Virus record (IMG/VR): IMGVR_UViG_2529292735_000021
Span: 1-8,059 of that record
Strand: one strand, 5' to 3'
DNA: 8,059 bases
From: a virus
Taxonomy: Duplodnaviria > Heunggongvirae > Uroviricota > Caudoviricetes
How positions within the stretch are numbered: position 1 is the stretch's first letter; each line of letters starts with the position of its first letter. This document shows positions 5,451-5,711 of this stretch, piece by piece. The translations under genes were made by a program, and so were the position numbers. The notes beneath the pieces were generated by a model. It saw only the letters and a program-made list of their open reading frames with translations, made no database searches and was not told where the DNA came from.

Positions 5451-5711
5451 ATGTTCCGTTGTCCGCTTTGTGGCGCATCTGCCCGTATCCGCACAAGTCG
5501 TCCGGAAAATGATTCAAACACCGTGCGGCAAAAGTATTACCAGTGTAACAATCTGGAATGCGGCGTATGCTTCTCAACACTGGAAGCTTTCCATAAATTC
5601 ACATCGAAACACGCCTCCGGCGTTCACTCTTCAGAAGGTATCCCGTGGCATGAGCTACCAGCTTCACACAGGGGAAACAATCAGATGAGTTTGCCTTTAC
5701 CTCAGAATTAA
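5451..5711 (+). CDS. ogr: Ogr/Delta-family zinc-finger late transcription activator, 86 codons
   Basis: ATG at 5451 preceded by AAGGGAGG; N-terminus MFRCPLCGASARIRTSR....QKYYQCNNLECGVCF has the C-x2-C ... C-x4-C arrangement and matches P2 Ogr (MFHCPLCQHAAHARTSR...YHQCQNVNCSATF) as recalled; lies downstream of D as in P2. The C-terminal half is divergent and longer than the ~72-aa P2 Ogr. Confidence 0.75.
   Translation: MFRCPLCGASARIRTSRPENDSNTVRQKYYQCNNLECGVCFSTLEAFHKFTSKHASGVHSSEGIPWHELPASHRGNNQMSLPLPQN

Follow-up and report, generated by a model that had tools for sequence, protein, structure and literature searches.

An intact ogr gene with a long C-terminal tail in a P88-like prophage is very probably an ordinary late-gene activator

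The stretch of viral DNA analyzed here (8,059 nt, positions 1 to 8,059 of IMG/VR record IMGVR_UViG_2529292735_000021; hereafter the window) holds the right end of a P2-like prophage and flanking chromosome. One of its genes, ogr, encodes an 86-residue protein of the Ogr/Delta family of late-transcription activators, whose C-terminal half had been singled out as divergent in a prediction made from the DNA letters alone (the original prediction). We find that ogr is very probably the intact, ordinary late-gene activator of a P88-like (Xuanwuvirus/Gemsvirus, Peduoviridae) prophage residing beside leuZ-cysT-glyW-pgsA. Judged by comparison with related proteins, its long tail is a lineage trait, the normal form in the P88-like group, and is neither a novelty nor the mark of a special retention.

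The window gene encodes a zinc-ribbon protein of the Ogr/Delta family

The ogr open reading frame (ORF) starts with ATG, comprises 86 codons, ends with TAA and is preceded by a GGGAGG Shine-Dalgarno sequence at positions 5440-5445. The N-terminal half had been described as Ogr/Delta-like, and this was confirmed by the Pfam profile Ogr_Delta (PF04606), which matched residues 3-49 with an E-value of 5.1e-14 and a score of 52.4 bits, about twice the gathering score of 26.3 bits. The protein also matched phrog_603 of the PHROGs collection, a family assigned to transcription regulation. It contained the cysteine motif of the Ogr/Delta proteins (C4, C7, A11, R14, C32, C37 and F41), all residues of which were invariant in an alignment (A1) that includes P2 Ogr, 186 B, PSP3 Pag and P4 Delta. 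In the zinc loop, which reads CX2C-X24-CX4C, there is a two-residue insertion specific to Xuanwuvirus-type proteins. An AlphaFold2 (AF2) model displayed a three-stranded zinc ribbon over residues 1-49 (strands 10-18, 25-32 and 40-46), with a predicted local distance difference test (pLDDT) score of 84-93; the score was 44-61 over the tail, residues 50-86. At the level of this model, the N-terminal 49 residues are shown to adopt the C4 zinc-ribbon fold of Ogr/Delta proteins.

The genes of the window are arranged in the order tape-measure gene (5' part), gpE/E' genes, tube, sheath, D, a cargo gene, ogr, hok, a small ORF, tRNA-Leu/Cys/Gly and pgsA. The succession D, cargo slot, ogr and hok at the end of the prophage is that of P88 and its relatives. 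Membership of the Ogr/Delta family fits by profile, cysteine motif, fold and genomic position; the promoter dyad discussed below may fit in a modified form.

The long tail is shared by a lineage of Peduoviridae

The 86-residue protein was found with 100% identity in Escherichia phages 500465-2, Chuche and PhiR44_2 and in Citrobacter phage Shae_phiSM. P88 Ogr differs from it at a single residue (98.8% identity), and the Ogr proteins of 520873 and P884B11 are 93-94% identical. In P88, phiSM, 500465-2, Chuche and PhiR44_2, the likeness extends over all 86 residues, and the gene lies between D and hok with the same -10 box and Shine-Dalgarno sequence, although the D-ogr interval is without cargo in P88 and contains another cargo gene in 500465-2. 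The ORF is unannotated in the records of P88 and phiSM. P88 is a chemically inducible coliphage, and phiSM forms plaques and lysogenises (PMC6456863; PMC5285337). Of 5426 complete E. coli genomes, 1200 (~22%) had the same type of ogr, which the Prokaryotic Genome Annotation Pipeline (PGAP) names ogr/Delta-like zinc finger family protein; the protein cluster formed at 90% identity comprised 566 sequences and another one, at 93% identity, 332. The long-tailed subfamily is thus already represented in sequenced, viable phages, and the gene is already known. As found, it matters little, being a routinely annotated Ogr/Delta-like activator of about one-fifth of complete E. coli genomes and of several sequenced phages.

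We defined the P88-type (long-tailed) Ogr subfamily as proteins of 80-94 residues with the C-terminal motif IP(W/x)..(L/F)PxSH(R/Y)G..Q(L/M)xL. The window protein had this motif, as did 12 of 15 homologues (alignment A4) and each of the six long-tailed phage proteins of A1. Long-tailed proteins of 80-86 residues, with the tail motif IPW..(L/F)PxSH(R/Y)G..Q(L/M)xL, were found in five further genera of Peduoviridae, and homologues with 54-86% identity, encoded by E. albertii, Salmonella and Symbiopectobacterium, kept the same motif. Novemvirus phiT5282H, Reginaelenavirus 3LV2017, Reipivirus ST16-OXA48phi5.4 and Senquatrovirus SEN5 carry it as (F/L)P(A/R)SH(Y/H/R)G..Q(L/M)x(L). The Ogr proteins of these four phages (80-83 residues) resemble that of the window in their FPASH(Y/H)G..QLxL tail, in the divergent orientation of sheath and D and in the T(G/C)T-N12-ACAACAAAA element described below; they differ from it in showing 38-47% identity, a canonical X22 zinc loop and no hok after ogr. 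The order sheath(-)/D(+)/ogr(+) was observed in Xuanwu-, Gems-, Novem-, Reginaelena-, Reipi- and Senquatrovirus phages, all of which have an Ogr of 80-86 residues. In this clade the orientation of the FI-U tail operon is reversed with respect to D, in contrast to P2, in which FI to D and ogr are codirectional. The long-tailed Ogr proteins accordingly make up a coherent subfamily linked to the Peduoviridae clade whose tail operon is inverted.

Over the tail codons (50-86), the ratio of nonsynonymous to synonymous substitution rates (dN/dS) was 0.06-0.28 against four relatives, and no indels were seen in ogr against five relatives. By this measure the tail is evolving under purifying selection. 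The low pLDDT of the tail and the conservation of its motif fit a disordered tail with a short conserved motif, and the 37 residues represent the conserved and probably disordered form typical of the clade with the inverted FI-U operon.

We also considered that the ORF might be a pseudogene or a frameshift fusion with an out-of-frame C-terminal half. The one observation in favor of this was the dissimilarity of the tail to that of P2 Ogr. Yet, the full-length protein is identical in viable phages, the tail motif is kept in distant homologues, and the dN/dS of the tail (<0.3) and the lack of indels are those of a frame that is maintained. The alignments therefore exclude this possibility, to which we assign practically no weight, and the internal frameshift that the original prediction had named as a possible refutation was not found in them.

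One observation concerns phiSM itself. Its virions are reported to be siphovirus-like, with long non-contractile tails, and its sequence to be 76.8% identical to that of the P2-like P88 (PMC6456863), a phage that encodes a tail sheath and tube. Such a morphology seems hard to reconcile with a P2-like relationship; in the present work the phiSM record (OR565851.1) was confirmed to encode the identical Ogr.

Comparison with the activators of P2, 186, PSP3 and P4

The identity of the window protein in A1 was 32% with P2 Ogr, 31% with 186 B, 38% with PSP3 Pag and 30% with P4 Delta. Like the window protein, P2 Ogr (72 residues) is a C4 zinc-finger late activator of family PF04606 that is encoded after gene D at the end of the prophage. 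It differs in its overall sequence (36.5% identity over residues 1-74 by tblastn), in its X22 zinc loop, in being without about 10 tail residues that include the LPASHRG motif, and in Y42, which aligns with a leucine of the window protein. We take Y42 to be the site of the mutation suppressing rpoA109. The 14 residues by which the window protein (86 residues) exceeds P2 Ogr were distributed in A1 as two in the zinc loop, about 10 within the tail (ELPASHRGNN) and three at the very end (PQN), with one residue fewer elsewhere. 186 B and PSP3 Pag (72 residues each) belong to the same family, follow D and share the zinc-ribbon core, whereas their tails are of the short, P2 type; 186 B is subject to repression by CI through annotated operators. 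P4 Delta (166 residues) consists of two fused Ogr-like repeats with the same type of zinc finger. The second repeat ends in ELPP...SLRL, which aligned in A1 with the tail motif of the window protein, although Delta departs from it by its tandem-repeat architecture and by being encoded by a satellite. When the window protein was searched by tblastn, only its residues 1-53 aligned with most P2-type phages. By sequence, it is a member of a distinct subfamily with no orthologue-level match to P2 Ogr.

The excess length and the dissimilarity of the C-terminal half to P2 Ogr had both been predicted, and both are borne out by these comparisons. What did not hold was the idea that the divergent C-terminus is something special: aligned with its family, the protein is an ordinary Ogr variant, the very outcome that the original prediction had listed as refuting it. 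The protein is identical in four deposited phages, and its motif recurs in at least six genera.

A bolder reading of the tail would be that it marks a functionally distinct Ogr subfamily, in which it serves as a docking peptide that contacts RNA polymerase at another surface or binds a partner from a phage or a satellite, having co-evolved with the inverted layout and with the AGA half-site of the promoter element. This would agree with the conservation of the motif from 54% to 100% overall identity, with the purifying selection on the tail, with its predicted disorder, reminiscent of a short linear motif, with its co-occurrence with the sheath(-)/D(+) architecture in every example seen and with the similar stretch in the second repeat of P4 Delta. 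Yet, P2 has the same type of site (GTTGT-N12) with the same spacing, the tail may be ancestral and have been shortened in P2, 186 and PSP3, and the co-occurrence may reflect nothing else than shared descent. We therefore regard this reading as unlikely. Its extension, according to which the docking peptide gives the subfamily a distinct partner and the intact copy in a decayed prophage could act in trans on P2-like phages or P4-like satellites, appears quite unlikely to us. The preferred reading remains that of an ordinary activator with the tail of its lineage.

A putative late-promoter element and the expression of ogr

The activators Ogr (P2), B (186) and Delta (P4) recognize a hyphenated dyad, TGT-N12-ACA, centered near position -55 of late promoters, a well-established notion that is partly confirmed by PMC3931495 and PMC11434276. 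Scans of the window for this dyad were uninformative by themselves (41 matches with one mismatch versus 39 expected, i.e. the level of chance), and the clade-specific element was derived from alignments. The intergenic region between the divergent sheath (FI) and D genes, aligned for five genera (A2), contained a conserved element of the form T(G/C)T-N12-ACAACAAAA, which reads TCTCCCGCCACGGCGACAAC in the window. Two copies of the element were present in P88 (14216-14237 and 33255-33276), one of them in the P/O (terminase/scaffold) intergenic region. The annotated activator sites of P2 are GTTGT-N12-CCA (PP/PO and PF) and GTTGT-N12-CAA (PV); the GTTGT half-site and the N12 spacing are therefore common to these sites and to the element of the window. 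The distances are also similar, the center of the site lying ~88 nt from the ATG of FI in the window as compared with 83 nt for PF of P2.

These findings suggest that the element is likely an Ogr binding site for the FI promoter, and maybe also for the D promoter. If it acts like its homologues in P2, 186 and P4, the window protein would bind the GTTGT-N12-AGA dyad centered about 55 bp upstream of late transcription starts and, once bound, would recruit RNA polymerase through the C-terminal domain of its alpha subunit. A single site could plausibly serve both divergent promoters, FI and D, as does the annotated site shared by PP and PO in P2, where transcription starts 56 and 55 nt on either side. 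As the clade element has kept the GTTGT half-site of P2, cross-activation between P88-like and P2-like elements is plausible.

As to the transcription of ogr itself, a -10-like box, TAAAAT (TAGAAT in P88), at positions 5415-5420, about 25 nt upstream of the ATG, was conserved in all P88-type loci (alignment A3). The -35-like box lies in a degenerate copy of the 3'-end of D carried by the cargo modules. These boxes point to a weak sigma-70 promoter belonging to ogr itself, as annotated for P2 and 186; a scan of positions 3900-6300 for promoters and terminators gave results at the level of chance. Where the cargo is missing and just 42 bp separate ogr from D, as in P88, read-through from D would also be possible.

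Several observations weigh against the assignment of the window protein as an ordinary late activator. Its match to the NCBIfam equivalog model of P2/K-12 Ogr (NF007241, 72 residues) scored 44.5 bits for a cut-off of 116, with only residues 1-61 aligned. The spacing of the zinc loop is X24, where the canonical family motif is CX2C-X22-CX4C (CX2CX3AX2R...CX4CX3F; PMC3931495). The exact dyad TGT-N12-ACA had no occurrence in the window versus 2.2 expected, and the element described above has TCT instead of TGT in one of its half-sites. Furthermore, the presumed binding of zinc and of DNA and the presumed activating function are extrapolated from distant homologues with 30-38% identity, and no experiment on a long-tailed P88-type Ogr was found in the searchable literature. 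With these points taken into account, we still hold the assignment to be very probable.

Table 1. Features of the window, with positions counted from its first nucleotide
Feature	Position	Strand	Description	Evidence
gpE-like gene	577-943	-	Frameshifted at ~828, 1-bp insertion	Comparison with relatives
Tail tube FII	957-1511	-	1-bp insertion at ~1071, C-terminus altered	Comparison with relatives
Tail sheath FI	1511-2696	-	Frameshifted, 1-bp insertion at ~2589	Comparison with relatives
P2-type late-promoter activator site, putative	2776-2795	.	TCT-N12-ACAAC, i.e. GTTGT-N12-AGA on the minus strand; between divergent sheath (FI) and D	Alignment A2, five genera
Gene D (tail/baseplate hub)	2854-3958	+	Frameshifted, 2 bases lost in an A-run at ~3579-3584	ORFs 2722-3603 and 3515-3958, both Phage_GPD
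Cargo module	3950-5410	.	Polymorphic D-ogr slot; P88 has 14 bp instead	blastn boundaries against P88, L002 and L003
Cargo gene	4089-5243 (5249)	-	384 residues (386 from an upstream GTG); uncharacterised stand-alone family	
Sigma-70 promoter of ogr, putative	5392-5420	+	TTGGAG, 17 nt, TAAAAT	Alignment A3 and relaxed promoter scan; consensus match only
ogr	5451-5711	+	Intact; 86-residue C4 zinc-ribbon activator of late transcription, Ogr/Delta family, P88-like (Xuanwuvirus/Gemsvirus) type	ORF, Pfam, identical phage proteins
Ogr tail, codons 50-86 (37 residues)	5598-5708	+	Lineage-typical, conserved motif IPWHELPASHRGNNQMSL, predicted disordered	Alignments A1/A4, dN/dS, low pLDDT
hok/gef-family type I toxin	5902-6042	+	Directly downstream of ogr, in all P88-type prophages examined	phrog_251, E-value 2.5e-23; named Hok/Gef in the annotation of other loci
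Small ORF	6234-6629	-	131 residues listed	Residues 51-131 match phrog_27544, E-value 3e-59

The survival of ogr in a prophage with damaged tail genes

The original prediction described the late structural genes as broken and ogr as intact beside cargo. The first point is true of the window sequence, in which four tail genes carry indels (Table 1), and the second agrees with the recurrence of the 86-residue frame in independent phage genomes. The indels were called against P88 and three E. coli prophages, and the 1-bp deletions in D (~3579 and ~3584) against P88, L002 and L003. All of them, deletions as well as insertions, are changes in the length of homopolymers. The insertion in the sheath gene, the only one of these indels checked against other genomes, was absent from all E. 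coli genomes holding the stretch (1373/1373) and from the GTDB representative genomes. Because the indels are homopolymer changes and the sheath change is private to the window sequence, they are either very recent mutations or assembly errors.

Against this background, we considered the possibility that ogr has been selectively retained, or domesticated, in a decaying prophage in order to control the cargo gene or to trans-activate or sense superinfecting P2-like phages or P4-like satellites. Such a role would be in line with the fact that ogr, cargo and hok are intact where four tail genes are frameshifted, and the GTTGT half-site common with P2 makes cross-activation plausible. Ogr family members cross-activate one another's late promoters, and Slettan et al. 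reportedly described, in 1992, functional ogr genes in the cryptic P2 remnants that E. coli K-12 and B carry. Furthermore, in E. coli ESBL_DR28 (L023, positions 1-4600), the pgsA-tRNA site keeps only ogr, hok and the small ORF, with ogr intact, beside IS3 fragments and a group II intron. The persistence of this prophage end is, however, explained by its position and by hok as well as by selection on ogr.

Against such a role, the late-promoter element was not found in or near the cargo module (positions 3950-5450), and the cargo gene and ogr are divergent, with ordinary weak sigma-70-like boxes. Nor do ogr and the cargo gene constitute a co-evolved pair, since the D-ogr slot is empty or otherwise filled elsewhere. 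With the indel density of the tail genes (5 per 3.95 kb), the probability that the 261 bp of ogr would escape any indel is ~0.7, and that of cargo, ogr and hok together (1.56 kb) is ~0.14, so that their intactness carries no selection signal. In addition, the ogr DNA is identical to the copy of another prophage, 500465-2, at 258 of 258 nt, which leaves little time for decay and indicates that decay, if real, is recent; the sheath frameshift is private, and the indels may be assembly errors. Finally, genes at the prophage end next to hok may survive by position alone. We conclude that the intact ogr needs no special explanation, being small, found as a DNA-identical copy elsewhere and located at the prophage end next to hok. 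A retention for the regulation of cargo or as an answer to superinfecting P2-like phages is thus unsupported, and we consider it very unlikely.

The cargo slot and its gene

D and ogr enclose a slot whose content is polymorphic. It was empty in P88, P884B11, RM13514, JJ2434 and CUVET20-PYO1; genes of 1023 nt and 1464 nt occupied it in 500465-2 and 22AR0750, respectively, and a gene of 666 nt on the plus strand did so in E2348/69. Together with the 1155-nt gene of the window, this makes at least five states. The cargo modules all end 35-45 bp upstream of the ATG of ogr, and each carries the degenerate copy of the D 3'-end mentioned above. A keyword search of papers on P2 hotspots yielded no mention of ogr, of gpD or of such a slot. 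The window cargo had been called novel: it is indeed uncharacterised, but it is not specific to this locus, as the same gene occupies the same slot in E. coli SE11.

Searches of the cargo gene against Pfam, PADLOC, PHROGs and NCBIfam, with the single sequence or across 56 family members, gave no hit, and a profile search of the PDB sequences gave no match. An AF2 model (pLDDT 89.6) had no significant fold match. Homologues formed at least 132 clusters at 90% identity, all named hypothetical, from Enterobacterales, Vibrionales, Alteromonadales, Psychrobacter, Arcobacter, Clostridia, Bacilli and others. No conserved neighbor was found, any one neighbor being shared by at most 4 of 32 loci. In Edwardsiella, a homologue lies in a region resembling an integrative and conjugative element, between traN and ssb/recT/yqaJ; in Klebsiella aerogenes, one lies beside a resolvase, an AAA_13 ATPase and an Mrr-type nuclease. 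The cargo gene can thus be seen as a stand-alone gene that hops among the variable regions of mobile elements, and it is a reasonable candidate for a single-gene anti-phage system. This family appears to us a more interesting lead than ogr itself.

The invariant residues of the cargo protein include R141, G145-A146-H147-P148 and A161-S162-x-P164. The R141-x5-H147 arrangement prompted us to consider a HEPN identity, which we judged unsupported.

Between D and the cargo gene, which converge, a strong hairpin with a 10-bp stem (GGCACAGAGC...GCTCTGTGCC) was noted at positions 3974-4012; positions 3955-4095 had a fold z-score of -5.25, and a U-tract was absent on both strands. A P88-type prophage end 96.5% identical to the window over positions 1-6162, including the cargo gene, was encountered in a 226-kb sequence labelled Vagococcus sp. 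WN89Y (NZ_JBQPOM010000071.1, L026); this points to contamination or to a mislabelled assembly.

Neighboring features of the prophage end

Downstream of ogr, a GC-rich hairpin with a T-rich tail (positions 6051-6074, minus strand) lies just 3' of the hok/gef gene. A search of the window with Rfam at gathering thresholds detected three tRNAs only, and the Sok/hok RNA family was not found. Relatives of the small ORF are annotated as 282-nt genes; its 81-residue core, with a start resembling a signal peptide and a cysteine-rich segment, probably corresponds to a small secreted moron at the end of the prophage. P88-type prophages were seen at no fewer than four sites in E. coli, namely leuZ-cysT-glyW-pgsA, ihfA-pheT, serS and the TagO/flk region.

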